Source: an uncultured Gammaproteobacteria bacterium (GTDB lineage Bacteria > Patescibacteriota > Microgenomatia > Levybacterales > UBA12049). From it: DNA of 64,000 nucleotides. Each line of letters opens with the position of its first letter. The stretch's first letter is position 1. The notes under the pieces were generated by a model that was not told the origin of the DNA, did no database searches, and saw only the letters and a program-made list of their open reading frames with translations. The translations under genes were made by a program, and so were the position numbers. The DNA is taken from assembly GCA_964525395.1 (NCBI GenBank), contig CAZGGU010000002.1, positions 30,263 to 94,262 of the forward strand. Direction: 5' to 3'. Below, piece by piece: positions 15,951 to 36,578 of the stretch.

Positions 15951-15953
15951 ATG

Positions 15954-17987
15954 TTAGAAAGTTTTAGTTGCATCATTAATGTTTTGACTAGGTAGAGGTG
16001 ATTCTGGCGCTGATTGAAAGCCAAAATCAACCGGAGCTGATGGTTGATGGGATGCAGGCGGAATGGGTGCAGGTTGGGTTGGGCTTGCAGCCTCAATATT
16101 CAGATTAGGGTTGGTTGTTATTTCTACTTTTTCTTCTTGGGGATGAGATTCGATGGCTGAGCCAAATTGTGATTCCAGTGTATTGTCAGGGCGCTGCTCT
16201 TGTTCTTTAAGTGCTTTTAGTTTGAGAACTTCTTCGGGATTGGAAGTAATAAGTTCATGTTCAAATGGCGCAGCCAAAACCTTCATGGCCACATGACTTT
16301 GGCCAGCGAAGAATAATCCTTCACCGATGTTGGCAGAGAGCAAGAGTTGTTTTTCTTGTTCGGAAAGATAGAAAATATTTGATACCAAATCAATCTGCGT
16401 TGGGCTTTGTTTCAGCAGCATTTGAATAGATGAGTTTGAAAGTACAGCCTTGCCGTAATCATTGGACAAAAAGTCCTGAACATCCTGTGTTGCAGTAGTT
16501 AGAGCAAGGTAATATTTACGAGCTCGCTTAGCAATTCCGTGTACAAAAGAAGCTGAATCTTGATACTTCATTAAATACCATGCCTCATCTAAGACTAGTA
16601 GGCGTTTTTTAAGATCTTTTCTTACCTTGGTCCAAATAAAATCAAGAATGATATGCATTGCCACAGGACGTAGTTGATCTTCAAGTCCTTGCGTTGAGAA
16701 AATAGTCAAAGGATTTTTAATATCAAAGTTAGACTGCTGATTAAATATTCCAGCCATGCTGCCTTTAATAAATTTCTCAAGCCTGAGAGCCAAGTCTCTA
16801 GCAATAGGATCTTCTGTGCCAAGCAAGACCTTGTATAAATCTTCCATAAGGGGTGGTTCTTTAGTTTGCGTTGAAGGATCAGGGGTAATTCCTTTTTGAC
16901 GATAGGTTTCCACTAGCGCGCGGTCAAGAATGGCGTCATGTTGTGCGTCAATGTCTCCCAAAACAATCCTGAGTAGGGCGTGCAGAGACAGGATTTTTAG
17001 TCCTAGTTCGTTTTCCCCCTCTTCGTATCTTCCTGAAAGATCAAAAGGATTAATCTTAATAGGTGAGGCTGGGGTAAACTCTACATATTCTCCTCCCATA
17101 GCTCGCGTAAGCTCTCCATACTCGCCTTCAGGGTCAATAACGATAACCTCTGTACCAAACATAAACTGCCTCATGATTTCTAGCTTGATCAAATAAGATT
17201 TTCCAGATCCTGACTTTCCGAATACTACCTCATTGCCGTTCTCAAGAGAATATCGATCAAAGACTATTAATGAGCCATTGAGTTGATTAATGCCATACAT
17301 GACGCCCTTATCTTGAGTAAGTGTGGCTGATGTGAAGGGAAAGGTGGATGCAAGACTGGTAGTGTCCATATTGCGCGTGAGAAGAAGCTCATCTCGCGCT
17401 AAAGGCACAGTGGATTTAAATCCCTCCTCCATCTGTAATGTTGAAGGTTTAGCGGTCAAGAGAATTGAAGCAAGAAGGGTCTTGAGTCTTTTTCCTGCTT
17501 CTTTTAGTTCTTCTAAATCATCAGCAACGAGTGTTACATAGAGGCTAAATTGGAAAAATCTCTCAATACCTTTGGCAAGCTCCTCTTGAACGGCAAGCGC
17601 ATCTTCGAGAGAGGCTTGAACTGTGGGATCCAAAACTTTTCCATCTTCTTCTTGCTTGGAAAGCGTAGCTTCCATTTCAGCGATTTTTCTTCTTAAGTCT
17701 CCCAAAATATCTCCAGATGACTGAGGATAGCAAAACATGGAGATGTTTAGTGATTGATCAAAATCAATTAAAGGCTCTAGCCAATTCGGCGAAACGTATC
17801 TTGGATATCCAACCACGAAAAATGTTTTAAAATATTTTTCTCCGACGCGAATGTGTCCGAAATCGACCTCTACGGATGGGGGAGCGATAATGTCAGTCAC
17901 ACTGTTCATTCCACGCTCGAAATGCTCAAGTGGTTTATTCGTTTTGGTTGGCATTGGAACAACAGGAGCTTTTTTTCGTCCAAACAT
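15954..17987 (-). CDS. virB4: type IV secretion ATPase VirB4/TrbE/PrgJ family (main body)
   Basis: Walker A FGKSGSGKSYLIK, Walker B LLVLDEAWYL, conserved VirB4 N-domain segment HIRVGEKYFKTFFVVGYPRYVSPNWLEPL. Confidence 0.8.
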   Translation of the reverse strand: MFGRKKAPVVPMPTKTNKPLEHFERGMNSVTDIIAPPSVEVDFGHIRVGEKYFKTFFVVGYPRYVSPNWLEPLIDFDQSLNISMFCYPQSSGDILGDLRRKIAEMEATLSKQEEDGKVLDPTVQASLEDALAVQEELAKGIERFFQFSLYVTLVADDLEELKEAGKRLKTLLASILLTAKPSTLQMEEGFKSTVPLARDELLLTRNMDTTSLASTFPFTSATLTQDKGVMYGINQLNGSLIVFDRYSLENGNEVVFGKSGSGKSYLIKLEIMRQFMFGTEVIVIDPEGEYGELTRAMGGEYVEFTPASPIKINPFDLSGRYEEGENELGLKILSLHALLRIVLGDIDAQHDAILDRALVETYRQKGITPDPSTQTKEPPLMEDLYKVLLGTEDPIARDLALRLEKFIKGSMAGIFNQQSNFDIKNPLTIFSTQGLEDQLRPVAMHIILDFIWTKVRKDLKKRLLVLDEAWYLMKYQDSASFVHGIAKRARKYYLALTTATQDVQDFLSNDYGKAVLSNSSIQMLLKQSPTQIDLVSNIFYLSEQEKQLLLSANIGEGLFFAGQSHVAMKVLAAPFEHELITSNPEEVLKLKALKEQEQRPDNTLESQFGSAIESHPQEEKVEITTNPNLNIEAASPTQPAPIPPASHQPSAPVDFGFQSAPESPLPSQNINDATKTF

Positions 17988-18649
17988 TATTTATTTCCTC
18001 CCTTCACAGTTTTTGCTGATACGTATGGATTATGAATTCCGTCGGTAAGGTTAGAGCGTCCAGCTTCTTCATTGAACGATTCATAGTAAAGCTCAATTAG
18101 CTCCTCTTTCTCTAGAACTTTTGACTTAAGGCCAACGCGCTGAAGTTCTTGCATAAGAGAACGTGCTTTTGAGACAAGCATAGGCTTGGCTTCTTTAGCA
18201 AAATCTTCTTTATTTCTAATATTGGTCACTGCTCCTGCGCCCTTTTCCAGAAAAGAATAGGTAAAAACAAGATAAAATTTCTTATCAAGGACTGTTTCTT
18301 TTTGGATAAGGTTGGCTACAAAATCCTTATAGAGAAGGATGTGTTTGGAAAGTAGGGGATTGTTCGTTTTCTTTGACTCTGCGTCTAGAAGATGAACGTA
18401 GGAGCTAATATCAAGCTTTCTGGAAACAATCAGAATCTGAATTGGGTAAGAAAGTGAATTTAGGAAAGAAGCATACGAGAGAATTTTAACTTGCTGCTCC
18501 TCAGGCGACTGCAAAGCGAAGTTGGTAGCGGTAATTTCTAGAACCATGCATGCCTGATTGCCGGGTAAAACCACTACGCTCTCGAATATGTCCTGAATTT
18601 CAATAAAGCGTTGAGTGGTTGTATTTATTTTTTGGGCAGATTTGCTCAT
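17987..18649 (-). CDS. separately encoded VirB4 N-terminal segment (split virB4), translationally coupled
   Basis: VVVLPGNQACMVLEITATNFALQSPEEQQVKILSYASFLNSL matches the first conserved block of the CagE/TrbE/VirB4 N-domain; stop overlaps next start as TAATG at 17985-17989. Confidence 0.5.
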   Translation of the reverse strand: MSKSAQKINTTTQRFIEIQDIFESVVVLPGNQACMVLEITATNFALQSPEEQQVKILSYASFLNSLSYPIQILIVSRKLDISSYVHLLDAESKKTNNPLLSKHILLYKDFVANLIQKETVLDKKFYLVFTYSFLEKGAGAVTNIRNKEDFAKEAKPMLVSKARSLMQELQRVGLKSKVLEKEELIELYYESFNEEAGRSNLTDGIHNPYVSAKTVKGGNK

Positions 18650-19885
18650 TTAGTTAAAAAGCTCCCTCCTAAGCTCTTCCCTTTTATCCACCGAAGTTAC
18701 TTCAATTGGCATAATTGGATGACCGGTTGCTTCGATTTGAACAATGTCGAATTTATTTTCTTCTTTAGGGTCTTCAAAGCTCAGGAAATATTTGCCATTT
18801 GAAACAGAGGTGGCTGAAGCAAATTGACCAAGGCCATTGGTTTTAAATGCTCTGACAGGATTATCTTCTTCGTCTTTTACTTCAACTAATACGTTCTGAA
18901 GTGGATTTCCTCTCGGGTCTTTTACAATTCCAGTGATAAGATTGGGCGCTTCAGGCATGCTAAGAACTCCTGCAGCCTTGGTTTGATTTGGCGCCACTTG
19001 CTTTACTCTTGGTTCCTGAGTTGCTTGAGGTGCTGGAGGGTTGGGCTGGCTCGTTGGCTGAGCAGGAATCACTGGAGGAGTTGAATGATCCTCAAGCTTA
19101 GAGTTGATCTTAAGAACCTCTCGCTCTAGTTCTTCTTTTTGACGAGTTGCTTCAGCAAGCATTTTTTCTAACTCTGCGATTTTTTGATCAGCAGCATCTT
19201 GATTTACGGCTGGAGCGGTTTGCTCAAGTGTTTTGCTTGCCTCAATTTGTTTTTCAAGAATCGCAGTTTCTGCATCTATTTTTTTCTCTGCAGCTTCCAC
19301 TTTTGCCTTTTGCTCTTGGTCTAGTTGATCTTGTTGAGCTTTTTCTTGAGCGGCTCTAGCAAGCTCGTCTGCGCTTGGTTGATTAGGAGTAGGAGCTACT
19401 TGTGCTGGCGCTGGGACTGGAGCTTGAATTGGTTGGATTTGTTGAACAGGTTGAGCTGAGATTTGATTTAATTCAATAGTTTGCATAACGGGAATATTTG
19501 GTGCTTGAACTGGCACGTGTGGCGCAGGCAAGGGGATGACTTGGGGTATCTGCTTCTCGGAAACTGTTTGCTTCTGGGTTTTAGTGATATCTCCACCATC
19601 TTTTCCATAAATATATTTCGTGGGGGAAAGCATGGCTCTGAAAAGATTGATAAACATAGTGTCCATTGGGCGTCCGTCCACGGGAACGAAGGTAAAGATT
19701 ATTCCTATAGTTACAATCACAATTGAGATTGGCCAAGAAATGATGTGAGGAATTGGCAACAGGAAAGAGATAAACCAGCCAATCAAAACGACAACTGCCA
19801 AATACACAAACTGCCTAACGGTCATAGAACCGATAAGCTTAAATTGAAAGCCTGTAATGTCTTGGGGAATTGGGTGATTCTCCAT
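18650..19885 (-). CDS. PrgI/VirB3-like two-TM protein fused to long Pro/Gln-rich coiled-coil and C-terminal globular domain
   Basis: N-term IPQDITGFQFKLIGSMTVRQFVYLAVVVLIGWFISFLL followed by second TM matches PrgI-family topology/motif (P.D...K....T.RQ); central coiled-coil EQKAKVEAAEKKIDAETAILEKQIE. Confidence 0.45.
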   Translation of the reverse strand: MENHPIPQDITGFQFKLIGSMTVRQFVYLAVVVLIGWFISFLLPIPHIISWPISIVIVTIGIIFTFVPVDGRPMDTMFINLFRAMLSPTKYIYGKDGGDITKTQKQTVSEKQIPQVIPLPAPHVPVQAPNIPVMQTIELNQISAQPVQQIQPIQAPVPAPAQVAPTPNQPSADELARAAQEKAQQDQLDQEQKAKVEAAEKKIDAETAILEKQIEASKTLEQTAPAVNQDAADQKIAELEKMLAEATRQKEELEREVLKINSKLEDHSTPPVIPAQPTSQPNPPAPQATQEPRVKQVAPNQTKAAGVLSMPEAPNLITGIVKDPRGNPLQNVLVEVKDEEDNPVRAFKTNGLGQFASATSVSNGKYFLSFEDPKEENKFDIVQIEATGHPIMPIEVTSVDKREELRRELFN

Positions 19886-20013
19886 CTATTCTCTTTCCCT
19901 GCCTAATATTAACAATAGAATAATATGTGAAAAATCCCATTTCAAGGCTATCGAAATAGATCAGGTTTAGAAGAAATTGGCCTTAAATGTGAAAAGCCAT
20001 TTCTGACTAGAAG

Positions 20014-20388
20014 TTATTGAGTGCCCCTGCCTGCTCTAAGGTTAGTCGCGTTGGTAGTTGCATTGCATGATGTAAAGCCAAATTTAGTAATGCAGCCAAC
20101 TCCTGTTATGCCAGCAATAATATTTAAAACAGCGAAGGACATAAGTATAACTATGAGACCGATTAGAGCCCAAGTGATAGTTTTTTTAGCCCCATCTGCT
20201 GCCTTAGGGTCTCCTCCAGAGGTGATATATTTTATTCCGCCAAGAATTACTAAGAAAAGTGCAATTATTCCTGCGAAGGTTAGAGCCCAAAAAATAAGGT
20301 TTTGAAATAGTACAGTTGCACAGTCTAAGGTAAGTATCTCCCCATACTTACTATCAAACGCACAAGCATTACCAGCTAATTTAAACAT
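20014..20388 (-). CDS. VirB2/TrbC-like pilin paralog 3
   Basis: Two hydrophobic helices flanking ILGGIKYITSGGDPKAADGAKKTITWALIGL; shared motif with the two upstream paralogs. Confidence 0.55.
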   Translation of the reverse strand: MFKLAGNACAFDSKYGEILTLDCATVLFQNLIFWALTFAGIIALFLVILGGIKYITSGGDPKAADGAKKTITWALIGLIVILMSFAVLNIIAGITGVGCITKFGFTSCNATTNATNLRAGRGTQ

Positions 20389-20431
20389 AAATTTAGCGTA
20401 ACAAAGAGGGGATTAAATCTCAAGCGGAAGT

Positions 20432-20851
20432 TTAACTGTTGGTGTAATTGGTAAGTGTGGGAAGAGTTAAATTGGTTAAGTTAATTCCGAAAAAGCCAAG
20501 TAAAATGTTCAAGATAAAGAATGACAAGAACATGATTGCGAGACCGATAAGAGCTGCTACAATCATTTGTCTTGATGCATCAACCTTCTTGGAGTCTCCG
20601 CCTGACATTATCCACTGAATTCCTCCAAAAATAAGGAAGCCGAGAGCAATAATTACGCCGATTACGAAAACTACTTGGATAAGGGTAGCCACTATTCCGC
20701 TGAAATCAGAGAGAGTTAATTTACAAAGTCCGCCAAATCCTCCACCAGGGCATACGCTAATTTTTTGTTGAGCATGTGCTTGAGGAGCGAGTGTTAAGAA
20801 TGGTACCGCTGAAAGTGAAATGGCAGTTATCTTTTTCATGTATATAAACAT
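20432..20851 (-). CDS. VirB2/TrbC-like pilin paralog 2 (with cleavable signal peptide)
   Basis: Signal peptide ...LTLAPQAHAQQ; FLIFGGIQWIMSGGDSKKVDASRQMIVAALIGLAIMFLSFFILN. Confidence 0.55.
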   Translation of the reverse strand: MFIYMKKITAISLSAVPFLTLAPQAHAQQKISVCPGGGFGGLCKLTLSDFSGIVATLIQVVFVIGVIIALGFLIFGGIQWIMSGGDSKKVDASRQMIVAALIGLAIMFLSFFILNILLGFFGINLTNLTLPTLTNYTNS

Positions 20852-20887
20852 CGTAGAAATATTTTAAATTCTTGTCAAGGGGTCAAT

Positions 20888-21223
20888 TTATGTGAGCTTT
20901 AAAAGATTGAGTCCGAAGAATCTGCCGACTACATTAATTATGAAAAATGCTAAGAAGGTGATGATAAGGCCAATCGCTGCGAAAGTAATTTTCTTTCTGG
21001 CCCCATCTACAGCTTTCGCATCTCCACCTGATGAAATCCACTGAATCCCGCCCCACATGATGAAAAATAAGGCTGCTAAGACTGCAGCAATAAACATGTA
21101 TGTAATTCCCAAGCGAATTACACCTTGAAGAGTGGGGAGACCAGACTCAGGCATGCCACCAATGGGTTTTAAATCAATTTGTTTGCCGTCACTGGGAACT
21201 TTAAGTGCTATTTCTCTAATCAT
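20888..21223 (-). CDS. VirB2/TrbC-like pilin paralog 1
   Basis: FFIMWGGIQWISSGGDAKAVDGARKKITFAAIGLIITFLAFFIIN; two TM hairpin. Confidence 0.55.
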   Translation of the reverse strand: MIREIALKVPSDGKQIDLKPIGGMPESGLPTLQGVIRLGITYMFIAAVLAALFFIMWGGIQWISSGGDAKAVDGARKKITFAAIGLIITFLAFFIINVVGRFFGLNLLKLT

Positions 21224-21225
21224 AT

Positions 21226-22470
21226 TTAACTAAATCCTGGAAGACCAAGGATATCAACTGTAATTAATCTAAGAATTGAGAGAGAAAAGATGATGAGTAA
21301 AAGTCCTGCAACGGCTGCTATTATGGCTTCTCTTGCTTCTGCTATTTTTTTAGGGTCCCCCTGTGAGGTCATTAGTTTAAATCCATTAGCGATAAAAAGA
21401 ATAATAAGAATTCCACCGGAAAGACTGAGGACGAGAATCAGCACGCTTCTAGCAAAGCCTTCAGGATTAATCCCAATCTTACCTATAGCTGTGTTGCAGG
21501 AGTTTGGAATTGCTTCGCCGGATTTAGGCTGACAGGGATTAGAAACTTTATTGCCCGGGTAGTCATAGCAGCCCAACTTTCCATCTGTGCCTGTGGTGCA
21601 GTATTTGCCACCGCATTCGGAATCATTATTGCAGCCTGAATGACCACCGTTTTGATCCACCGTGAAAGAGTCTGAGCAGTTTGTGTTATATTTGCCATCG
21701 ATCTGGACTTTATATGAGTTTTCTCCTATTAAATCATTTCCTACCGATACTCCCGCCGCTGCCTCGAGTTCACTTCTAGTTGGTGTAAATCTTTTTATCT
21801 CTGATCCATTTTCAGTTCCATTTATTTGAATAATTCTGACAAGCATTTTATCTTCAGGTTTTTCTGTAAACTCCTTTTTAAATGCAGCTTTTATTTTAAC
21901 TTCAGTTCCAGGCTTAAAATCAGTGTTTAGATATGTAATCGTGCAAAACTTATTGTCAACGCTAGTTTTTTGAATTTCCAAAGAGGCGCTTCCTAGGCTG
22001 CAGAGTAGAAAATCTCTGTTTTGACCCTGCTCTCCTTGGTGTCCGGTGGTTCTTAAATTGAATTCATATTTGCCAGGGTTGAAATCTGATGCATGATCCC
22101 CCTTTGTGTTTCCATTTCGATCAAATGGGGTATTAACAGTTGCGAGAGTATCTTCTTCGAATCGTTCCAGCGTCACTTTCGCAGGTACATTTGATTTATA
22201 AAATAAATCTCCAGTATCTTCTCCAATCGTACGAATGTCTCCTCCTTGTGGATTTATTGTCATTTCAATATTTGACGTAAGTGGAATTTGTTGACCCTTT
22301 ATTTTTAAGGTGATGCTATTTATTATATGGTCATCATCTCCTGCAGACTGTTTTTCTGAAATCTTCTGGATAGAACATTCACTTTTAGAATTTTGAGCAT
22401 AAGTAGGCTGAGTGTAAGTTGAAACAATCAGTATTAAAAAGAGTAGGACAGCAAAGATAATTCTTTTCAC
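21226..22470 (-). CDS. secreted Cys-rich extracellular domain fused to C-terminal pilin-like module (candidate minor pilin/tip adhesin)
   Basis: Signal peptide MKRIIFAVLLFLILIVSTYTQPTYA; Cys-rich GCNNDSECGGKYCTTGTDGKLGCYDYPGNKVSNPCQPK; C-terminal ILFIANGFKLMTSQGDPKKIAEAREAIIAAVAGLLLIIF shares the pilin paralog motif. Confidence 0.5.
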   Translation of the reverse strand: MKRIIFAVLLFLILIVSTYTQPTYAQNSKSECSIQKISEKQSAGDDDHIINSITLKIKGQQIPLTSNIEMTINPQGGDIRTIGEDTGDLFYKSNVPAKVTLERFEEDTLATVNTPFDRNGNTKGDHASDFNPGKYEFNLRTTGHQGEQGQNRDFLLCSLGSASLEIQKTSVDNKFCTITYLNTDFKPGTEVKIKAAFKKEFTEKPEDKMLVRIIQINGTENGSEIKRFTPTRSELEAAAGVSVGNDLIGENSYKVQIDGKYNTNCSDSFTVDQNGGHSGCNNDSECGGKYCTTGTDGKLGCYDYPGNKVSNPCQPKSGEAIPNSCNTAIGKIGINPEGFARSVLILVLSLSGGILIILFIANGFKLMTSQGDPKKIAEAREAIIAAVAGLLLIIFSLSILRLITVDILGLPGFS

Positions 22471-22506: not shown

Positions 22507-23814
22507 TTAAGGTGTGAATTTAAAGCCGCGTCCTTTTACAGTTTGCAGATGAAGCGGTGAATTAGGGTTTTCTTCAATTTTTTTCCTAACCCTAAAAATA
22601 AGTTGATCAAGCGCTTGCTCTGAGACCCCAACTGTAGTGCCTAAATCTCCCCAAACTGCAGAGATGATTTCCTCTCTTTCGATTATCTTGTCAGGATTCA
22701 TTAGCAGATAAGCAAGAAGCTTAAATTCAGCAGATGTTAAAGATTCTGAAATAATAATTTTTCCTTTTTTAATTTCTTTAGACTCTTTATTAAAACTAAT
22801 CTTTTGAGTATCTGTCTCATTTTGTTTTTTTGCATAAGACATGAGTAGCGGAAGAGCAAATTTATTATCCCTAACTAATCCTACTGCCACGAGATGTGAA
22901 GAATCGTGAGCTTTGTTTTCCTCGATGAGGTTTTGCTCAAATGGAGTAAAATATTTCCAAATTTCTTCCAAAACTGCCTTGATTCTGCTGTTTGAAAATA
23001 AAGATTTTTCTAAATTTTCTTGTTCACCGTTTTCTAGACAAGCCTCAGCTGCTACTCTGGTTAGTTTTCCTACGCCTCCAGTTAAATTCGTGACTGTCTC
23101 GAGTGTTTGCTCTGAAAGTTTTTTATTCGCTTGTTTTTGAATATAATTTAACCTGAAATCTAAAACTGCCTTATTCATCAGCGGCAAATATACTATATTT
23201 CCTACTACGAATTCGTAATAATCAGCAATTAAATCATTTTCTACTATTTCTTCGAGTGGGCGAGAGAGAGGAAAGATAGCAGAGAAGCGATATTTAGCTC
23301 TGTCTCTAAGAACCCTAAGATTGCTAAAAAATTGTGGCGTAAGCATTGGGAGATATTCCTCAAAGCGATCGAAGAGAAAAACAACTGTATATTCTTTTTC
23401 AAGTGACAGATAATCAATAGATTTTCGCAGTCCTTGAAACAGAACTAGTTCATCGTTGGTTTTGAGGCTTTGTTCGAAAAGTCCACGAATATATTTAGAT
23501 TCTTCTTCCAGATGGCGTTCTTCAAAAGAATCAAGTAGCTCAAGAAACATATACTTGGTAGCCTCAGTTAATGGTCGTTTTTTAATTTCAGAGAAATTCA
23601 TCATGACGAAGTGAAACCATTTTTCGTTTTCCTTGAGGTGAAGAGTTCTGGCTTCGCGATTGTAGGAAAGAAGTCCCATGATGTTGGATCTTCCTACGCC
23701 TGGAAGAGAAACGATTTGCGCAGAATTTCCAGATTTTATATATGAGAGGACTTTATCAATTTCATCAAACCATGAATCTGGGGGATATAGAGATTCGAAA
23801 TGTTTAGGATCCAT
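22507..23814 (-). CDS. transcriptional regulator: N-terminal P-loop/STAND-like NTPase domain + C-terminal OmpR/PhoB-type winged-helix DNA-binding domain
   Basis: C-term LTSAEFKLLAYLLMNPDKIIEREEIISAVWGDLGTTVGVSEQALDQLIFRVRKKIEENPNSPLHLQTVKGRGFKF = trans_reg_C wHTH; N-term SLPGVGRSNIMG (degenerate Walker A) and VVFLFDRFEE (Walker B-like). Confidence 0.55.
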   Translation of the reverse strand: MDPKHFESLYPPDSWFDEIDKVLSYIKSGNSAQIVSLPGVGRSNIMGLLSYNREARTLHLKENEKWFHFVMMNFSEIKKRPLTEATKYMFLELLDSFEERHLEEESKYIRGLFEQSLKTNDELVLFQGLRKSIDYLSLEKEYTVVFLFDRFEEYLPMLTPQFFSNLRVLRDRAKYRFSAIFPLSRPLEEIVENDLIADYYEFVVGNIVYLPLMNKAVLDFRLNYIQKQANKKLSEQTLETVTNLTGGVGKLTRVAAEACLENGEQENLEKSLFSNSRIKAVLEEIWKYFTPFEQNLIEENKAHDSSHLVAVGLVRDNKFALPLLMSYAKKQNETDTQKISFNKESKEIKKGKIIISESLTSAEFKLLAYLLMNPDKIIEREEIISAVWGDLGTTVGVSEQALDQLIFRVRKKIEENPNSPLHLQTVKGRGFKFTP

Positions 23815-23914
23815 TAAAACATTGTAATCTAACTAGCCTCAAAACGTCAATTTTATAAGGCTTTTGTAATGTAGATATCAAGTCTATAGTTTGATTTTTC
23901 CTTAAACTACGCAC

Positions 23915-26900
23915 ATGGAAAGAGAAGCTTTCACGCCAGAAGAATTGACAGGACAAGGCCAAAACGCCTATTCTAGAAGTATGCCAGAAACACCTGATAA
24001 TCCTATTAAAGGTCCTGAACAAATACCGCCTCAAAGAGTAAAAAGACCACATTCAGAAGTTAACCCATCGTCAATTGAAGAAAGAATTCAGCAAATGGCG
24101 GAGGAATATCGAGGAAAAGGAATTCCTGTAGATTTTGGCACTCTCCAAGCTTTTAGAGCTCTTGCAGAAAGAGGAATTATGCCAATGGGTGGAGGCGCAG
24201 ACGATCCCGATGGGGGACCTGCGGGGGGAAGAAGACGAAGAAGAGCGGGAGCAGATGGAGTGCCGCCAATTCCACTAGATGAACAAATTAATGCATTTGC
24301 AGAAGCGAATGGGCTTAGTCCTGAAACCGACCGTGCTTATATTCTTAACGCGTTGGACCGTCAAAGAGCAGATGATGAGAGAAGAGCTGCTAGAGCTCAA
24401 GGGGCAGAGGGGTGGAGAACTATGTATCTTAAGGATCAGGACATGGAAATTTTGAACAGAAATCCCATGGAGTGGATCGAGGAAAAGTTTAATGAAATAA
24501 ATGCTCTTGCTAAGAAAGGAGCAGAACTTGATTCTCCTGCGCTTCAGCGTATTCAAACACTTTTCGGAGAAGCGCATGAGTACGTAGCTAATTTTAAGAA
24601 AAATGATCCTGAGCTAGTTCAGCAATTTACTGATGTATTTTTAGGAAGACTTAACTTAATGTTTATGGCTTCCACTATTGAGCTACGAGATTTAGAGTCT
24701 GCAGGGAAAATGGCAAGAAGAACAAAAGCTTCTACTCTATTTAGTGCGATGGAATATGAAGATGGAAAAGTAGGAATGCTCTATAACAGAATGCAAACTA
24801 TGTATGAAGATTACAGATTGGCTATCGGAGGAGTAGATAGAAAAATATTACCCGAGTTTGAATCTCGATTCCAGCAATTTATTATAGACGGAGAAATGAA
24901 GATGGCGAAGAGAGGGGTAGGTGAATATGCGGCCAAATATGCAGAAATAACGGCTATTGTTAATGGGCAAGGATTGTCAGAAAGACAAAGAGTAATACTT
25001 GGGAAGATGGGAATAAATCCCGATGATCCTATTCAGGCTACCCCAGAAAAGCTAGAAGAAGCAAGACAAGCTGAGATAAATGACAGAATTGAGCTAGATA
25101 TTAGAAGAGCAATGGGACCTGCTTGGGATATTTTCCGTATAACCCAGCGTCATGCGGTTATTAATGCTAGAGCGCATAAAACAAATTCTAGAGATGTTAA
25201 GAAATTGGCTGGAGGTTGGAAGGAGTTTTTAGGTCAGAATGGTGCTGCTTTTGCTTCATTTAACGCGGAAAATATGCTCTGGGAGGAATATGGCCTCTAT
25301 ACTGGTCATGATTGGGCTTTTGTAAGAGAAATTAAGCGTGATCTGGCAACTTCAGAGATAGCAGATAGGCTCAAAAATATTAAGAAAAAAAGAGCTAAAT
25401 TAAATGCTGGTGAAGATCCAGATAAAGATGATCATCATGTAAGCGATGAGGATGAAGGAGAAGAGGATCATCATGTTCTTCATGATGAACATCCAGAAAC
25501 ACCTGAACAAAGAAATGTTAGATTTGCGGAAATACGTAGACAGCTTCAAATTGAAGAGAATATTTTACGCAACATGACACAAGCAGATGTGGATGAGTTT
25601 GGAAAGACGCTCTTTAGAGATATGTATGCAGCTGCTGATTTTTACTCCTCTGGGTGGAGAATGAACGGTATCTTAGATCAGCTTGACAAGTATGGAAATT
25701 ATTTAAATTCTCAGGATGGGGTGGATCCACATCATCCAGTATTTGATTCCAAAAATTTCGGAATGTTTGTTCGATTAAGGGCAGATGCAGGTGGTAGAAG
25801 AGATACCTGGGAAAGAATTGCCACATTTCGACAGGAGGAAATATTAAGGCTTTACAGAGATAAAATTCTGACAGAGCCTAGCCCACAGTACGATAGCCAT
25901 GGTCATAAAATTAAGGCAAAAAAGCCAGCGCCAGATTATATGAAGCCGTCGCTTGATTTATTCTTCGGTAAGCTTAGAGAAATGGGAATAACTACTGACG
26001 ATTTACCTGCAGAATTAAAAGATGCTCAAACAACTGAATACGATGTATTTAAATTAAGGTATGGAGCAGCGATTCAAACTATTCGCCAGCAGGAGATGGA
26101 GGCTAGGGGAAATGGAGTACCGCGTCAAATAGACTTTTCTGCAATTGAGGTAGGATCAGATGACTATGTAAGATTTAAAGAAATAATTGATAATTCAGTG
26201 GGAAAGGAAGGAGCAATTGATGATGTCATAAGAGTTTACAAGGAAATGAATAGATTCATTGGACGTAGGGATGCTATTGGTTTTGAACCCAAGGTGATTG
26301 ATAGGCTTATTTATGATCCCAAGTTTGCGGATATTTACACGAGAGTGATAACAGCAGATGATATCCTTTCAACAAAGATTGAAGGACCCTCATCGCCTAT
26401 AACTTCTCTTACTCAAAGTGTTTCCGTAGATCAGGCAACTGACGCACTTGTTAGAAATTTTAATGATTTAGGCCATGCGGGAAATGCAATGGGTGGACTT
26501 TTGACGTTCGTTAAAGAAGAGCACGAAGAACCTAGATTAAAGGCAGCGCTTGAATTCGCTGAAGAAGCAAGCATGTATGGAGGGCAGGATGCTAGAGCTA
26601 AGAATGTAAGATTTACTTTTGGAACTTATCTTAATCTAGCGAAGAAAGATTGGCTTTGGGACACAATGGATTTTGAGTCAGGGCCTGCAAGAAAAGCGAT
26701 TTCAAATGCACAGAAAATATATGGGCCACAGTTGAAGGCTAAATCAAGAGCAGAATTAAGACATGAATTAGATGAAATTAGATATAAGCTCGAGGGCGCC
26801 TTTGGAGGACACCTCGGTGATAAATATTATAGAGAGCTTGAGCATATGCTTGAGGTAACTAGTGGAGATTCTAATAAGATGAGATTTATGTCATTCATGA

Positions 26901-27028
26901 TTGTTTTAATTGCAGCAGCTCTTGTAACACCAGTTGGAGTTTCTAAAGATAGCTTTAATGATGTTGGAGGACTTCTCGCAGGTGGTGGGGGCGGCGGCGG
27001 TGGTGGTGGGGGCGGAGGCCATCATTAA
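23915..27028 (+). CDS. 1037-aa hydrophilic, charged/coiled-coil protein, tail-anchored (single C-terminal TM) with C-terminal poly-Gly-HH tail; unknown function
   Basis: No signal peptide; only hydrophobic segment FMSFMIVLIAAALVTPVGV near C-terminus followed by GGGGGGGGGGGGGHH; locally GC-rich 5' region encoding GGGADDPDGGPAGGRRRRRAGADG. Confidence 0.5.
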   Translation: MEREAFTPEELTGQGQNAYSRSMPETPDNPIKGPEQIPPQRVKRPHSEVNPSSIEERIQQMAEEYRGKGIPVDFGTLQAFRALAERGIMPMGGGADDPDGGPAGGRRRRRAGADGVPPIPLDEQINAFAEANGLSPETDRAYILNALDRQRADDERRAARAQGAEGWRTMYLKDQDMEILNRNPMEWIEEKFNEINALAKKGAELDSPALQRIQTLFGEAHEYVANFKKNDPELVQQFTDVFLGRLNLMFMASTIELRDLESAGKMARRTKASTLFSAMEYEDGKVGMLYNRMQTMYEDYRLAIGGVDRKILPEFESRFQQFIIDGEMKMAKRGVGEYAAKYAEITAIVNGQGLSERQRVILGKMGINPDDPIQATPEKLEEARQAEINDRIELDIRRAMGPAWDIFRITQRHAVINARAHKTNSRDVKKLAGGWKEFLGQNGAAFASFNAENMLWEEYGLYTGHDWAFVREIKRDLATSEIADRLKNIKKKRAKLNAGEDPDKDDHHVSDEDEGEEDHHVLHDEHPETPEQRNVRFAEIRRQLQIEENILRNMTQADVDEFGKTLFRDMYAAADFYSSGWRMNGILDQLDKYGNYLNSQDGVDPHHPVFDSKNFGMFVRLRADAGGRRDTWERIATFRQEEILRLYRDKILTEPSPQYDSHGHKIKAKKPAPDYMKPSLDLFFGKLREMGITTDDLPAELKDAQTTEYDVFKLRYGAAIQTIRQQEMEARGNGVPRQIDFSAIEVGSDDYVRFKEIIDNSVGKEGAIDDVIRVYKEMNRFIGRRDAIGFEPKVIDRLIYDPKFADIYTRVITADDILSTKIEGPSSPITSLTQSVSVDQATDALVRNFNDLGHAGNAMGGLLTFVKEEHEEPRLKAALEFAEEASMYGGQDARAKNVRFTFGTYLNLAKKDWLWDTMDFESGPARKAISNAQKIYGPQLKAKSRAELRHELDEIRYKLEGAFGGHLGDKYYRELEHMLEVTSGDSNKMRFMSFMIVLIAAALVTPVGVSKDSFNDVGGLLAGGGGGGGGGGGGGHH

Positions 27029-27053
27029 TTGACATAGGTATTAAACTTTAATC

Positions 27054-28625
27054 TTAATGGCCACTACCGTACGGTTTCGTAAATCCTGAATATATCATTG
27101 CCTTCGCAAGAATATTAGTTCCTTTTCCACCTCCATGTTGAGCATGTACGTTCCTTGCCCATGTGTCAGCTGCAGTCTTTGGAATTCCTAAGTATTTTCC
27201 GCCAACTCCGAGTGGTCCCATAATATTTCCAAAATTAACACCTGGAGCTTTGAACGCATCTTTAGTGGTGGTTAAGACATTTGGTAGCATTAAAATAAAT
27301 CCAAGACCAACTATTGCCCCGATTGCTTCGGTATTCGTTCCGCCAACCAGTGGGGGAACGAATCTCGTTACAGAGTCGCCATTAAAGGATTCAATGAAGT
27401 AGGAGGCAAGTAGGAAAAAAGCTACAGCTACTGGATAAACGGCTAAATTGGCTAAAAGATCTTTAATCCATACTCCTATCCCAGCTTTGGAGCCTGGCAT
27501 AACTCCAGCGATAATCCAAAATGGAGCAAAAATAATATCAAGAATTAAGTTTACATAGGCAACAACGAGTACGACCCAAACCCTAAATAAACAGACAACT
27601 ACCGCAATGGCAATAATTAAAAATGCTAGGATGTTTACAATCACACCAACTACGCCACCAATTATATTTCCCACAATATCTCCATTGCCGAAGTTAGAAG
27701 ATGGACCAGTAAAGACTGATTTGATAACTTCAGCAAAAGCAGATGATACTTGTCCTGCGATTCCCAGTATTCCGCCATTTTCACTAAAAGCGGCATTAGC
27801 TGCATTAAAAGGATTAGAGGCTCCCACGACTGCATTAGCAGCTTCAGGAGACACTACAGTTGAGGTAGCGCTTTGGATGACAAAAGCAAAAAGGTAGGTA
27901 GCTACGAACATGATATCAATGAGTAATCCGGCGATTGCAAATGAGAAGGTAACTGCAATTATTCCCATAATTATTTTGGGTAATTGATTTTGAATGGTCA
28001 TCACGTCATGTGCGTCAATATGGACCCTAAGCATTATTCCAAGACCGACAACGACGAAGGCGAGAATTAGAATTAAGTAGACAATATTTCTCATAGCCAC
28101 CCACAGTGGAAGAACGGGCTGGAGGCCGCAAAAGCCAACTCCTCTAGAAAGATTTTTACATGGATCAGTATTTTCTTGAGCATAAACTTTATCTCCTACG
28201 CCGAAATTACCTTTAAGATATGCAGTATATTGAGTAAAAGAGGCGGGCGGGGTAAAAGTCATATCAATTGCCTTTCCCATAACGGCGATTAAACCTCCCC
28301 CATTTTCTACATAACCGATTTTACCTGTTTCTGGATTTACACCTAGACACTGTGTGCCTGGTCTGGTTGGGTCCACTCCTGTGAGTTGGCAAGCCATAGC
28401 CGACATGGTTTCGATAAGTAGTATCTGAACTCCATTATGCATGTTCATTTCTACATTCGCTTCAGCATCTAAATTTTCTGTTTGTATATCAGCTTGAGGA
28501 GTAGTGGCCTCAATTTCATCAAGTGTTCCTGGAGTTTGCGCATAGGTTTTATGTGAAATTCCAGCGAAAAGAGCGAGGAATAAAAAGAAAGCAAGAAAAA
28601 ATAATTTCTGGGCAGAAATTCTCAT
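27054..28625 (-). CDS. VirB6/TrbL-like polytopic membrane protein
   Basis: Signal peptide then large periplasmic-type domain, then >=7 hydrophobic helices and Gly-rich C-tail; architecture of VirB6/TrbL/PrgH family; adjacent to T4SS genes. Confidence 0.5.
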   Translation of the reverse strand: MRISAQKLFFLAFFLFLALFAGISHKTYAQTPGTLDEIEATTPQADIQTENLDAEANVEMNMHNGVQILLIETMSAMACQLTGVDPTRPGTQCLGVNPETGKIGYVENGGGLIAVMGKAIDMTFTPPASFTQYTAYLKGNFGVGDKVYAQENTDPCKNLSRGVGFCGLQPVLPLWVAMRNIVYLILILAFVVVGLGIMLRVHIDAHDVMTIQNQLPKIIMGIIAVTFSFAIAGLLIDIMFVATYLFAFVIQSATSTVVSPEAANAVVGASNPFNAANAAFSENGGILGIAGQVSSAFAEVIKSVFTGPSSNFGNGDIVGNIIGGVVGVIVNILAFLIIAIAVVVCLFRVWVVLVVAYVNLILDIIFAPFWIIAGVMPGSKAGIGVWIKDLLANLAVYPVAVAFFLLASYFIESFNGDSVTRFVPPLVGGTNTEAIGAIVGLGFILMLPNVLTTTKDAFKAPGVNFGNIMGPLGVGGKYLGIPKTAADTWARNVHAQHGGGKGTNILAKAMIYSGFTKPYGSGH

Positions 28626-29567: not shown

Positions 29568-29684
29568 ATGTTTATATTATATCAATAAATAAGCTTATAA
29601 GATAATTTTTGTAATCTTTTTATAAAGTTAATATCAAGCCTCATTAATCTTTAAGAGCTAAACTACGCTTAGAAAGGAGAAGAT

Positions 29685-29903
29685 ATGTATCCCAAAGAAG
29701 GACAAATAAAAATTCAGGAAGCATTAGCAGAAGCAGAGCAGATTGTGTTTGAAGAGCAATATACAGCTGCTCAGGAAGAAGCAGAAGAAGCTGAGCTTGA
29801 GCAAAGACTTATGGAAGTAGAATTAGCAGCAGCAGCGCAGGAAGAAGCAGAGAGACAAGCTGAGATTACTCAAGAAAAAATTGCAGAAGTTGTAGGAGTG
29901 TAA
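29685..29903 (+). CDS. small highly acidic coiled-coil protein (72 aa)
   Basis: ORF with RBS-like aggagaag upstream; E/A/Q-rich. Confidence 0.3.
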   Translation: MYPKEGQIKIQEALAEAEQIVFEEQYTAAQEEAEEAELEQRLMEVELAAAAQEEAERQAEITQEKIAEVVGV

Positions 29904-29904
29904 C

Positions 29905-30237
29905 ATGAAAGAATTAAAAGACTTAATGAAAGATGTCGAGCGAGATCTTTTAATAGGAATAGTGATCTCAGTAAAACATAAACGATTGACTCTAAAAGAG
30001 TCAGAGAAAATTGCGAAAGAGTTTATAGAGGAAAAAACGGAAGATTATGAAAAACTTTTCAAAAAACTCTTTGAAATGGGTAAGAAATATAAAATAGTCA
30101 GAAAAATTTATGTTAAATATGCGCCGGAATATGAATATATGAAAAAAGAAAGGGACTTAAAAATTATGAGAAATTACATAGAAGAAAAAGATTATGAATC
30201 TGCCATTGAATTCGTGAAAGGAAACTATGGATACTAA
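29905..30237 (+). CDS. small K/E-rich hypothetical protein (110 aa)
   Basis: ORF immediately following previous (2-nt gap). Confidence 0.3.
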   Translation: MKELKDLMKDVERDLLIGIVISVKHKRLTLKESEKIAKEFIEEKTEDYEKLFKKLFEMGKKYKIVRKIYVKYAPEYEYMKKERDLKIMRNYIEEKDYESAIEFVKGNYGY

Positions 30238-30745
30238 TTTTGAGTCAACAACTCAAACTATTTCATCTCAGCCACCAGTTATCGAGCCCATTGAGGCTGG
30301 GGATTTAGACCTCCCAGTGATTGATAAGAAGGGAGACTCTCTGAGAATTACCTCTCAAGCACTTGAAGATTTTGAAGCCGAAGGGGAATCAATTATGAGT
30401 ATTCCGGGCTCACCTCATGAAAAACTTGCAGCATTAGCAGGAGGGAATATAATGCTCGAAGAGTTAAGAAAGGGAGGGAGTAAAAAAGAAAATAAAACAG
30501 ACAAAGCTCAAGAACTCAGCTTAGAGGAAAGAGTGTTAAAACTCCAAGAGGAGTTATTAAAATTGATGATTGCCAGAATGAAAGCAGAGAAAAAAGATCC
30601 TAAGAAAGAAGACGAAATTTATAAAAAACTGAAAAAACTTCTAGAGGAGGCAGAAGGGGAAGGTAAGGCTAATATTCTTCAGTCGCTCATGAATATCACA
30701 TTTATGCTTTATATGATTTCGAATGAAAATTCTTCAAGAGCTTAA
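30227..30745 (+). CDS. hypothetical protein (172 aa), acidic N-half, K/E coiled-coil, hydrophobic C-terminus
   Basis: ORF overlapping previous by 11 nt; C-term ILQSLMNITFMLYMIS. Confidence 0.3.
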   Translation: MDTNFESTTQTISSQPPVIEPIEAGDLDLPVIDKKGDSLRITSQALEDFEAEGESIMSIPGSPHEKLAALAGGNIMLEELRKGGSKKENKTDKAQELSLEERVLKLQEELLKLMIARMKAEKKDPKKEDEIYKKLKKLLEEAEGEGKANILQSLMNITFMLYMISNENSSRA

Positions 30746-31339: not shown

Positions 31340-32425
31340 TTAAAAGGTAATTCTTTCACAAGAGAGATGTGGGATAAGAACAATCATGTGGAAGAATCTC
31401 ACAGGAGTGTAGTTTAATTGGCATCTAAAGATTGGTCCATGAACTATTACTTTTGGAGTAGGTGTAGGAATTCCAGGGGTTGGGGAAAGTGTAACTGTAG
31501 GAGTCATGGTTGGTGAAGTAGTAGGCGTGGAAGTTGGACTTACGCTTGGCATGTTGGTAGGGGAAACAGTCGGAGAATTACTTGGCATAGGGCTCATGGT
31601 TGGAGAAGCAGATGGCTCGTTTGATGGGGTTGGAGAAGCAGTAGCTGAAGGATTTACGCTAGGAGTCATGGTTGGTGATGCGCTTGGAGTAATAGTGGGC
31701 ATTGGGGTGGCAGTAGCTCCACCGGGAGTTTCAGTTCCTGATGCTTTATTCTGAGACTGTGTAAGAACTCTAACTACGAAATCATTAATGTTATTTTCTG
31801 TGTCTTCGCCATTTCCATTAGCTTCATCAGGTCCCCCAAAAGCCATAGTTGAAGTAGTAGAGCTTGCATTAGCTTTTCTTTCTACGCTTTGTCCTGGTTC
31901 AGGGTTGGTGAGAGGATTTCCCTCGCCAAGAGTATTAATGACAGTTCCAAAGGTTACTGCATCTACGAGTGCGCCAGTATCGATTGCCCCATCTCTTAGG
32001 CCGATACTGTTATTGTCTGCAATTGTTGCGCTTGTAGCCCTGTCGCAGGAAAGAGTAGCAACGAGATCATTATTGCACCAAAGAAAATATCCGTTGGCTG
32101 GTATTACATCACCGTCATTAAAAGCAACTATGCTGTCGTCAGCATCTCCAGTAGAAGACCTTTTTACTAGTCGATATTCTTTGAGGTCAACGTCTGAAGC
32201 GGTAGGATTATAAAGTTCTATGAAGTCATGGGTTGATGCGCCATCTTCTCCTGTTTGAACTTCTGAAATTACTACATGATTAGCAGTAGCAGCAGAAGCG
32301 AAATGGGATTTTTGAAAGAAAAGAAAACCTACGAAGAGAATTATGAAGATTCCTAGAAAAGCTGGCAGTAGTCTTTTCATTACTTTATGTATAATCCTAT
32401 TTTTCAGCTCTGTCAACTGAGTCAA
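31340..32425 (-). CDS. secreted/anchored protein with lamin-tail domain (LTD) and long Pro/Thr/Ser-rich repeat linker
   Basis: N-term TM; [38 protein letters not shown] matches LTD signature; 31440-31760 encodes SPT(M/V)xPS-type repeats. Confidence 0.55.
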
Positions 32426-32673: not shown

Positions 32674-33048
32674 TTGCAATTTCTCCACAAACAATCAATA
32701 CTAATATATAGTATGCCGCTTGAAGAAAGTGAAAAATTGGAGTTGGAAAAAAGAATGGTGGATTTGATGCTAGATCAAATGGCGGAAGGAAAGCTAACAG
32801 ACAACCAAGCACAATCTATTTCCAGATATTGCGAAGAAAGCTTGAAAAACGTGAAGAATAAACAGCATCTCTCAGAATTCCTCTCAGTTTTAGTCAGTAA
32901 ATATCCTTTTTTCCAAAGCATTCAAGCTTCAGAGCAAGGTAAAGTGGACGAAGCGGTAGATAAAGAGGTTCATGAGGGAGCCTTAGTACTCGCTCAGCAC
33001 GGAAAGATCGAGGAGGCGATCAAGCTGACCCAAACAGCTACCAATTAG
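32674..33048 (+). CDS. hypothetical acidic protein (124 aa)
   Basis: ORF directly upstream (2-nt gap) of the 598-aa tail-anchored protein. Confidence 0.35.
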   Translation: MQFLHKQSILIYSMPLEESEKLELEKRMVDLMLDQMAEGKLTDNQAQSISRYCEESLKNVKNKQHLSEFLSVLVSKYPFFQSIQASEQGKVDEAVDKEVHEGALVLAQHGKIEEAIKLTQTATN

Positions 33049-33049
33049 T

Positions 33050-36140: not shown

Positions 36141-36170
36141 AAAAATCCGCAGTTACGCGGATTTTATTTG
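36141..36170. terminator. bidirectional rho-independent terminator (serves comFC on + and putative tmRNA on -)
   Basis: aaaaatccgcagttacgcggatttttatttg: 6-bp GC stem atccgc/gcggat, 6-nt loop, flanked by A-run and T-run. Confidence 0.6.
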
Positions 36171-36578
36171 TGGAGATGTCGAGGAGTGACCTCGAGTGCA
36201 AGAAGTTTATTTTTAAACGTCTACAAGCTTAGCTAAATGTTTTTTTGATCACTCTATTCTTTGAAATTTAGCATCCATAAATAGAGTCAAGGTTATAAAT
36301 ACAATAAGGACCTAACCGGCTTCCTTACAGTTTTTCTCAGCTGTTTTTATGCTCAAATTGCCTCACTGAGAAAAGGACAAAGCGAACATCCTAAATCTTA
36401 AACAACAGCAAAAGCTGGTGCTCCGAATTGAGGAACAGAAAGGTTAGGGATTAACCCCTTTACCTTAGCTGTTAAAATGCCTTTATTAGCATTTATTTTT
36501 TGATTATGTTTAACGACTACTATCAAAGTCGGCTTGCAATTTATTAATGTACTAACTTGTCGATGCAATGCATCCCCA
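36171..36578 (-). ncRNA. ssrA: candidate tmRNA (ssrA) downstream of smpB
   Basis: Minus-strand 5' end GGGGAUGCAUUGCAUCGAC..UGCAAGCCGAC resembles tmRNA 5' consensus GGGGnUG..GGAUUCGAC..GCnnGCCGAG; 3' end CGACAUCUCCA can pair with the 5' GGGGAUG as an acceptor stem; internal frame ..PNLSVPQFGAPAFAVV-UAA could be the tag ORF; 480-nt gene-free gap. Confidence 0.4.

Follow-up and report, generated by a model that had tools for sequence, protein, structure and literature searches.

A family of large, predicted tail-anchored all-α proteins encoded against a divergent VirB6-like gene in the type IV secretion loci of Levybacteria

We uncovered a family of large, predicted tail-anchored proteins that is linked to the type IV secretion systems (T4SSs) of Levybacteria-type genomes, Levybacteria being ultra-small CPR bacteria. 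It is described here from a 1037-amino-acid (aa) representative encoded at positions 23915–27028 of a 64,000-nucleotide stretch of DNA (hereafter the window; NCBI GenBank assembly GCA_964525395.1, contig CAZGGU010000002.1, positions 30,263 to 94,262 of the forward strand). The gene for this protein is invariably found converging on one for a polytopic VirB6/TrbL-like membrane protein, in the immediate vicinity of genes for VirB4, PrgI/VirB3, TrsD and an array of pilins. Its product is most probably a component of the Levybacteria T4SS that has so far gone undescribed, that is, a new lineage-restricted part of a known machine. With moderate confidence, we further propose that it faces the cytoplasm as a C-tail-anchored subunit of this system's inner-membrane complex, working with the VirB6-like protein. 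We favor such a machine subunit because the pairing with VirB6 persists across deep divergence, the gene is single-copy with a fixed synteny, the anchor is conserved, the body is large and folded, and TssL provides a precedent. A prediction made earlier from the letters of this DNA alone had offered the protein as a secreted substrate, a surface-exposed effector or a structural scaffold of a T4SS-like system: its tie to the T4SS stands, while the synteny and the retention of the anchor favor a subunit or scaffold over a secreted substrate or surface effector.

The link to the T4SS emerges from the gene neighborhood. As the original prediction had it, the gene lies divergent from a Trans_reg_C regulator and convergent on a polytopic gene, and the surrounding elements in the window are the following:

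12611–22470, minus strand: T4SS operon resembling the mating-pair-formation (MPF) FATA type, which includes three unknown genes
15954–17987, minus strand: VirB4 (P-loop_TraG)
17987–18649, minus strand: TrsD-like protein
18650–19885, minus strand: PrgI/VirB3
20014–22470, minus strand: four T4SS_pilin genes
22507–23814, minus strand: divergent regulator, with a Trans_reg_C winged helix at aa 358–433
23850–23845 (TTGACG) and 23826–23821 (TACAAT), minus strand: promoter-like site of the regulator
23915–27028, plus strand: open reading frame of the predicted tail-anchored all-α protein, with an ATG start; 1037 aa from M1, 1015 aa from M23
27054–28625, minus strand: the convergent partner, a 523-aa polytopic VirB6/TrbL-like protein; the two stop codons are 25 bp apart

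To place this arrangement in context we drew on 31 related loci, collected through look-ups of exact proteins and by scanning a single genome of each species with patterns from a 60-sequence alignment (a genome scan with patterns from 3 sequences found no loci). Wherever the 3′ flank is kept, the gene is directly followed by a convergent orthologue of the polytopic gene, with -4 to +32 bp between the two; likewise, all loci with upstream sequence have the pilin array, PrgI, TrsD and VirB4. The divergent regulator adjoins the gene in most of these loci; in the most distant subfamily, at 15–19% identity, it is not adjacent, but the convergent pair and the PrgI/TraC-like/pilin neighbors are kept. 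The same association is recovered from the opposite direction: seeding from the VirB6-like protein P0197, which carries a precomputed match to PF04610 (TrbL), uncovers a convergent neighbor of 1201 aa that is a member of the family and matches the window protein at E 3e-29. The gene is accordingly co-located with virB4, virB3, virB6 and pilin genes across divergent genomes, and the co-occurrence with virB4 and virB6 that had been suggested as a check is borne out in the relatives, including the distant subfamily. Between the window and locus L001, the large protein is 44% identical, alongside 44% for PrgI, 42% for the polytopic protein, 50% for TrsD, 41–64% for the pilins and 81% for VirB4.

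The polytopic partner displays a signal-like first segment and ~6 further hydrophobic segments (about 7 altogether), and its identity among the loci is 34–43%. The version in the window lacks a Pfam match, and two orthologues at 40–43% identity carry the precomputed PF04610 TrbL assignment; we tentatively accept the product of 27054–28625 as a divergent VirB6/TrbL-like protein. As the two genes converge with merely -4 to +32 bp between their stops, their transcripts must overlap or end inside each other, and no terminator-like hairpin is present in the 27029–27053 gap of the window. Separately, the metagenome-assembled genome (MAG) JAUSEW01 has the big-gene/VirB6-like pair twice, on separate contigs (L011 and L020), which could reflect either true paralogy or two strains in one bin.

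The family is visible only to sensitive searches. A word-indexed homology search recovered 2 relatives only, also when run with the 60-sequence profile, probably because low-complexity words had saturated its candidates; an exhaustive HMMER scan, seeded with an alignment including those 2 relatives and with a cut-off of E <=1e-3, recovered 106 representatives of clusters formed at 50% identity, 84 of them at E <=1e-30. Most members measure 830–1560 aa, and insertions specific to single lineages occur frequently. The protein collection contains four neighbors from the same 101-kb contig, but not the exact 1037-aa sequence itself. All the names borne by members and their loci are 'hypothetical protein', Candidatus Levybacteria/Levyibacteriota or 'Patescibacteria group bacterium'; thus, the family is unannotated and, in the data searched, confined to Levybacteria-type genomes. 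On the side of taxonomy, L013, L015, L016, L018, L023, L025, L026 and L027 come from MAGs titled 'uncultured Gammaproteobacteria bacterium', and these hold complete Levybacteria-type T4SS loci together with the gene; the titles look like placeholder or mistaken taxonomy.

No known domain could be assigned to the protein. Searches of Pfam, NCBIfam and PHROG with the 1037-aa protein were all empty, among 42 members even a cut-off of E <=1 gave no Pfam family common to two or more, and Pfam searches with 7 long members uncovered no extra known domain. The single protein had no match among PDB sequences, and the 60-sequence profile recovered chance matches to uL29 only, at E 0.18. Likewise, tblastn against the plasmid and phage collections yielded no match, and neither Walker A, HExxH nor other simple catalytic motifs were found in the sequence. 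The concern that homology searches might reveal a well-known housekeeping family is therefore met by searches of Pfam, NCBIfam, PHROG and PDB that give no known family.

The protein itself is built from the following parts:

24422–26869, plus strand: conserved all-α core, aa ~170–985 in the 60-sequence alignment, with a predicted local distance difference test score (pLDDT) mostly >90
25406–25501, plus strand: acidic/His-rich insertion seen only in the window protein, aa 498–529, DDHHVSDEDEGEEDHHVLHDEHPE
26876–26944, plus strand: single predicted C-terminal transmembrane helix, FMSFMIVLIAAALVTPVGV, aa ~988–1010, with a Kyte-Doolittle (KD) value of 2.35 and preceded by K/R

A KD scan over the 1037-aa protein shows a single peak above 1.2 (19-residue windows 986–996; maximum 2.35) and a hydrophilic N-terminus, and hence no signal peptide, in agreement with the length, missing signal peptide and lone C-terminal hydrophobic helix given in the original prediction. 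That helix had been put 35 aa from the end, which is approximate, as the span FMSFMIVLIAAALVTPVGV stops 27–28 aa short of the C-terminus. The protein, which has no cysteines, thus combines the two defining features of a tail-anchored protein, namely the lack of a signal peptide and a lone transmembrane segment near the C-terminus. This is not a peculiarity of the window protein: 91 long members of the family likewise have a lone hydrophobic segment right at the C-terminal end, where a median of 10 residues follows the uncharged span, and 79 of the 91 have a K or R on the N-side border of that span. Within 10 residues of the span, K and R together average 2.96 on the upstream side as against 1.77 on the downstream side. 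These sequence comparisons establish the predicted tail anchor as a conserved trait of the family, and the charge pattern is suggestive of an anchor with the N-terminus inside and the C-terminus outside.

The bulk of the protein lies ahead of this helix. An AlphaFold run with 3 sequences was poor (pLDDT 46) and was replaced by one with 60 sequences, which produced a model with a mean pLDDT of 83.7, a predicted TM score (pTM) of 0.80 and 644 residues at pLDDT >=90. The model has 43 helices, the longest of 39 residues, and is essentially strand-free; aa 1–48, 91–117, the His-rich insertion and 1013–1037 are predicted to be disordered. Foldseek comparisons recovered only what we treat as non-specific matches, both against PDB (best E 0.8, TM <=0.11) and against BFVD (best E 0.24). 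The confident model therefore predicts a compact all-α body with a fold that is novel relative to PDB and BFVD. The 'coiled-coil' design earlier ascribed to the protein does not survive this comparison, the AlphaFold model being a compact 43-helix bundle with a pTM of 0.80, though no dedicated coiled-coil predictor was run; nor does the model contain the long uninterrupted helices of an extended rod.

The 60-sequence alignment also separates what is shared from what is private. G563, W581, D816, R847, D851 and G937 are invariant in the core, and the near-invariant positions of the family are Arg, Asp, Tyr, Trp, Ser and Gly; such a dominance of conserved Arg, Asp, Trp and Tyr is what would be expected for interfaces or ligand sites. 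Segments peculiar to the window protein are found at about aa 341–380, 481–545 (acidic and His-rich), 661–700 and in the tail. The insertion at aa 498–529 has a column occupancy of 0.04–0.09, and so is missing from nearly all relatives; it has no helix or strand in the AlphaFold model, where the block-mean pLDDT drops to 50–75. It is possibly a low-complexity segment that could bind metal. Additional His pairs occur at aa 606–607 and at the C-terminus.

The pattern of conserved residues raises the alternative that the protein is a membrane enzyme acting on a T4SS-related nucleic acid, lipid or cell-wall precursor, with D815–D816, R847, D851, R582, R412 and R419 as its active site. The invariant and near-invariant residues are indeed almost all charged or aromatic, and the reported parasitic uptake of host RNA by a cultured representative of the lineage, together with the presumed part of VirB4 in macromolecule transfer (bioRxiv 10.64898/2026.06.21.733656), would provide such an enzyme with a setting. 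Yet, the empty motif searches, which extended to Walker A and HExxH, the lack of a Pfam family common to any two of 42 members (E <=1) and the failure of Foldseek to find a fold relative among enzymes make us regard this as quite unlikely.

A more serious alternative, although still a rather unlikely one in our estimate, is that the protein is a substrate of the T4SS, which would be delivered to the host, where the C-terminal helix would anchor it as an effector or a host-membrane tether. T4SS signals are commonly C-terminal, and here the protein has no signal peptide and yet bears a membrane helix followed by a short tail that often ends in Lys or His. Moreover, members of the family vary in length, frequently have lineage-specific insertions and differ in their tails, and the large gene is the fastest-evolving of the locus at a distance: against L003, its product is 27% identical as opposed to 32–48% for the others. 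An export of proteins, or some other non-conjugative role, has also been considered for the Patescibacterial T4SS (PMC10633639). Set against these points is the strict one-to-one, fixed pairing with the VirB6-like gene, since effectors usually vary in number and location. Furthermore, a helix as strongly hydrophobic as this one (KD 2.35) favors the membrane of the producer itself, and no coupling protein that could recruit a substrate is recognizable in the locus by Pfam or NCBIfam.

The subunit of the inner-membrane complex that we prefer has its own difficulties. The accelerated divergence seen in the comparison with L003 would equally suit a protein that is peripheral or faces the host. Charge is only modestly biased across the helix, and Lys is the terminal residue of many tails. 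The restriction of the family to Levybacteria-type genomes means that it is not a universal core of Patescibacterial T4SSs. Finally, the topology, the physical partnership with VirB6, the role as a platform and the existence of isoforms are all inferred.

The question of isoforms arises from the 5′ end of the gene, where the start codon is ambiguous (M1 yielding 1037 aa and M23 yielding 1015 aa) and where conservation extends to the nucleotides themselves. The elements concerned are as follows:

23864–23908, plus strand: upstream module, TTGTAAT..ATATCAAG-N20-TAAACT, of which the -10-like TAAACT occupies 23903–23908
23945–23974, plus strand: putative internal sigma70-like promoter, with TTGACA at 23945–23950 (Leu11-Thr12), 18 nucleotides (nt) and TATTCT at 23969–23974
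23981–23983, plus strand: second in-frame start, M23, 6 nt past the internal -10; it is the Met of 'IFM'

In the window, TAAACT lies 6 nt before the ATG of M1 (23915), which is the geometry of a leaderless mRNA. All 24 non-redundant loci have TAWACT 5–7 nt ahead of this ATG, with ATATCAAG 20 nt earlier and elements of the TTGTAA type; we infer a function for the upstream module from this conservation. Inside the frame, the Leu-Thr of 'ELT' is encoded as TTG ACA in 24/24 loci, and is followed at 17–18 nt by TACACT, TAGACT or TATTCT (TAnnCT/TAnnAT). Past this internal -10 come 6–37 nt, usually including GAGG, AGGAG or AAGGA and an AT-rich spacer, and then an in-frame ATG. TTG accounts for 18% of Leu codons and ACA for 38% of Thr codons in these genes, such that codon choice alone would predict TTGACA at ~0.067 per independent lineage; the 24 lineages are not fully independent, though many are <35% identical in protein. 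Across the loci, 12 different spacings occur between M1 and TTGACA, each of them a multiple of three with the frame open, so that the M1–M23 segment also appears to be under coding constraint. The internal promoter is the best promoter-like match of the region, although in a scan of the single locus, promoters and terminators were as numerous as in shuffled sequence, and only conservation across loci is informative. Several database entries have the second Met as the start chosen by gene callers.

The simplest reading of this conservation is that a sigma70-type promoter, a Shine-Dalgarno sequence and a second start are embedded in frame within the first 20–50 codons, which would imply a long and a short isoform of 1037 and 1015 aa in the window. 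At the level of the protein, the same region gives the appearance of an N-terminal peptide motif, M-K/N-E..ELT..STL/YS..GG-IFM-P/A-E. We considered this as a shared secretion signal and rejected it: in a scan of ~0.5 Mb of related loci the motif is confined to this family, and it consists largely of promoter, Shine-Dalgarno and start elements at the DNA level.

A second copy of the upstream module is seen at ~29600–29690, in the form ..TTGTAATCTTTTTATAAAGTTAATATCAAG-N20-TAAACTACGC..AGGAG..ATG 29685, where it precedes small acidic/helical proteins of 72, 110 and 172 aa (29685–30745). The two copies in the window may belong to a common small regulon. This recurrence (at ~29600–29670), which would suit such a regulon, and the divergent layout with a short shared control region bearing conserved motifs in most loci could be taken to mean that the protein is a membrane-tethered sensor or anti-activator of T4SS or pilin expression, in a signaling partnership with the Trans_reg_C regulator. 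However, it is the VirB6-like partner that is always adjacent, and not the regulator, which does not adjoin the gene in the distant subfamily. A conserved globular body of ~815 residues would also be unusually large for an anti-activator, and Pfam and NCBIfam searches detected no sensor or signaling domain; we therefore judge a signaling partnership to be very unlikely.

Two compositional oddities, namely a Gly-His tail and a GC-rich patch, bear on the integrity of the gene:

24173–24268, plus strand: Gly/Arg/Asp/Ala/Pro low-complexity linker, aa 87–118, GC-rich
26981–27025, plus strand: Gly13-His2 tail, GGGGGGGGGGGGGHH, with mixed GGN codons; an 18-nt unit repeated 1.9 times according to Tandem Repeats Finder

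The poly-Gly-His-His C-terminus noted in the original prediction is real and comprises Gly13-His2 at nt 26981–27025. Its codons run GGT GGT GGG GGC GGC GGC GGT GGT GGT GGG GGC GGA GGC CAT CAT, and a mixture of GGN codons of this kind means that the tract is not a homopolymer error of sequencing or assembly; it is possibly a coding trinucleotide tract that has grown by duplication. Gly-run tails with a terminal His are seen in at least 8 other members of the family (P0053, P0057, P0061, P0062, P0073, P0078, P0079 and P0080), as in the examples ..SGGGGGH, ..GLDGGGHH, ..GGGGGGGSGHGGGH and ..GSSGGGGGGGPH. In a neighbor-joining tree of the core, these tails are dispersed over clades whose sister groups are without them, and P0001, the nearest relative of the window protein, has none; Lys is the last residue of most other tails. 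By sequence, then, Gly13-His2 is an extreme version of a recurrent family tail.

The locally GC-rich 5′ stretch coding for Gly/Arg/Asp-rich sequence was also found, at 24155–24274, where the GC content is 0.58 against a window mean of 0.387 (standard deviation 0.056). By codon position, the patch has a GC1 of 0.75, a GC2 of 0.72 and a GC3 of 0.28 (GC content at first, second and third positions, respectively), with a GC3 of 0.277 for the whole gene and of 0.27–0.38 for neighboring genes. Since the GC3 of the patch equals that of its gene and neighbors, the peak is an effect of amino-acid composition and foreign DNA is ruled out. The encoded linker, with a pLDDT <50 at aa 91–117 and low column occupancy and identity, is predicted to be disordered and is poorly conserved.

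The GC peak and the extreme poly-Gly end are admittedly odd in a genome of 39% GC, and might have indicated a mis-assembled poly-G tract or an acquired gene unrelated to the T4SS. We find this hardly credible: the Gly codons are mixed and Gly-His tails recur in relatives, which contradicts an assembly artefact; the GC3 of 0.28 is as in the neighbors and does not deviate as foreign origin would have it; orthologues with the same neighbors are present in 31 other loci; and the plasmid and phage collections hold no match.

Comparison with characterized secretion systems offers several partial parallels. The closest in design is TssL of the type VI secretion system, a C-tail-anchored subunit inserted by YidC (PMC3426401). 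Like TssL and its type IVb secretion system homologue DotU (IcmH), the 1037-aa protein lacks a signal peptide, has a predicted cytoplasmic bulk and is encoded in a secretion locus, and a gene for YidC, the insertase of TssL, is also present in the window. TssL and DotU are about 200–260 aa long. By contrast, the protein described here has 1037 aa, 42 members of its family show no match to the DotU Pfam model (E <=1) and no fold match was found; moreover, TssL and DotU belong to diderm systems. A second parallel is provided by the 'extended' VirB6 proteins, in which large hydrophilic domains (review PMC12857230) are appended to the polytopic channel subunit. Here too a large hydrophilic protein is invariably encoded against a VirB6/TrbL-like gene, but it is a separate chain on the opposite strand with a C-terminal anchor of its own and no similarity to anything in the plasmid collection. 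By analogy, it may play a role comparable to that of the extended VirB6 domain, as a separate chain. A third comparison is with the type IV coupling proteins (T4CPs; VirD4/TcpA), which share with the predicted topology of this protein the character of a membrane-anchored, cytoplasm-facing T4SS component able to receive substrates. Unlike these, it has no Walker A/P-loop and no match to the T4CP models of Pfam or NCBIfam, its predicted anchor is C-terminal rather than N-terminal and its modeled fold is all-α.

The locus as a whole conforms to the MPF-FATA-like T4SS described from Patescibacteria (Quinonero-Coronel et al. 2025; Wang et al. 2023), with which the window shares VirB4, TrsD, PrgI/VirB3 and a VirB2-like pilin array, as well as a chromosomal site adjacent to dnaA/dnaN and the lack of a relaxase. 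According to one survey (PMC12102498), Patescibacterial T4SS clusters are chromosomal, lie near dnaA/dnaN, and have VirB2-like pilin arrays and TrsD with no relaxase or nearby T4CP. The same survey describes VirB6 as 'scarce' in Microgenomatia, which its authors ascribe to extreme divergence, and VirB8 as almost absent from Patescibacteria; the VirB6-like partner found here is of that scarce kind. Missing T4CP, relaxase and VirB8 leave structural roles unfilled in these surveys, and none of the Patescibacterial T4SS literature text consulted lists the family reported here as a component. In Southlakia epibionticum, the only species tested, the T4SS is essential for epibiotic growth (PMC10633639; review PMC12857230). 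The genes that mark the chromosomal setting in the window are:

8360–9211: YidC gene
9997–11349: dnaA
11496–12614: dnaN

The window is chromosomal, with dnaA and dnaN at the minimum of the cumulative GC skew near 10–11 kb. The T4SS cluster adjoins them and hence is located at the replication origin, as is known for many Patescibacteria.

Based on these precedents, the course of events for the proposed subunit can be envisaged as follows. Lacking a signal peptide, the protein would be synthesized in the cytoplasm, and its C-terminal helix would be inserted post-translationally into the cell's own membrane, probably via YidC. With the N-terminus in and the C-terminus out, the ~95-kDa all-α body would lie beneath the membrane and the short Gly-rich tail outside. 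Its putative partner would be the product of the tail-to-tail gene, the VirB6/TrbL-like polytopic protein, and together they might constitute a docking or gating platform for the VirB3–VirB4–TrsD motor and/or the cargo, in a machine with no recognizable coupling protein, relaxase, VirB8 or VirB10. Two nested promoters, a regulator-proximal one for leaderless expression from M1 and an internal sigma70-like one for M23, would supply two isoforms. A bolder and distinctly tentative extension of this scheme would have the new lineage-specific core subunit and the divergent VirB6 form the cytoplasmic gate of a non-conjugative T4SS. Such a gate would replace coupling-protein docking and possibly move host macromolecules, with the isoform ratio set by the adjacent regulator.

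The window codes for a second protein with a predicted tail anchor, which belongs to the following gene pair:

32674–34846, plus strand: genes for a 124-aa and a 598-aa protein, with counterparts within the T4SS operon of relatives

The 598-aa protein (33050–34846) has a lone C-terminal hydrophobic segment at aa 570–588. The claim that it shares the design of the 1037-aa protein therefore holds with respect to the tail anchor, but not with respect to homology, of which none was found, or to the coiled coil, which the model of the 1037-aa protein does not contain. A relationship of the 1037-aa protein with either this protein or a 666-aa protein of the operon was considered and rejected, as no homology was detected. 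Homologues of the 124-aa protein (E about 1e-9 to 1e-14, with 1e-11 cited) head a small-plus-large gene pair, with matches in L003, L005, L012, L018, L019, L022, L023 and L025. In many relatives, a pair of a small (103–124 aa) and a large (596–766 aa) protein is encoded between PrgI and the pilins, for instance, at 3233–5549 in L003, 3673–5933 in L005, 923–5768 in L007 and 1888–4029 in L019, among others. Weak matches (E ~1e-6) also connect the 598-aa protein itself with the large genes in L007 and L019. In the window, the pair lies downstream of the VirB6-like gene at a distance of ~4 kb; the 124-aa/598-aa pair is therefore probably another T4SS-associated module, relocated ~4 kb away in this genome.

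Several further features of these loci may be recorded. The pilin arrays of relatives contain small genes matching the Pfam family 23S_rRNA_IVP (L001 4824–5201; L004 6680–7063; L030 15312–15677, 18612–18986 and 20264–20635), and one such gene also matches bAvd, the type of accessory protein found with diversity-generating retroelements; no gene of this type was seen in the pilin array of the window. Elsewhere, the window has a tmRNA gene at 36168–36577 and an AdoCbl-II riboswitch at 54913–54983 (both Rfam gathering matches), and, at 31340–32425, a gene whose product combines a Lamin-tail domain with a long stretch rich in Pro, Thr and Ser.

The Patescibacterial T4SS has no recognizable coupling protein or relaxase. 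Against this background, our analysis pinpoints a divergent VirB6/TrbL-like gene of Levybacteria and its invariable pairing with a gene for an unnamed all-α protein of ~1000 residues. The latter is a tangible candidate for the cytoplasmic or structural part that the T4SS is missing, or else for its first cargo, and one for which a confident model and a small set of invariant residues are available. The predicted in-frame internal promoter and second start also present a case of overlapping coding and regulatory information. If the proposal of a lineage-specific subunit gating this system together with VirB6 is true, it would mean a new fold, a new architecture for a monoderm T4SS and a new layout of an in-frame sigma70-type promoter.

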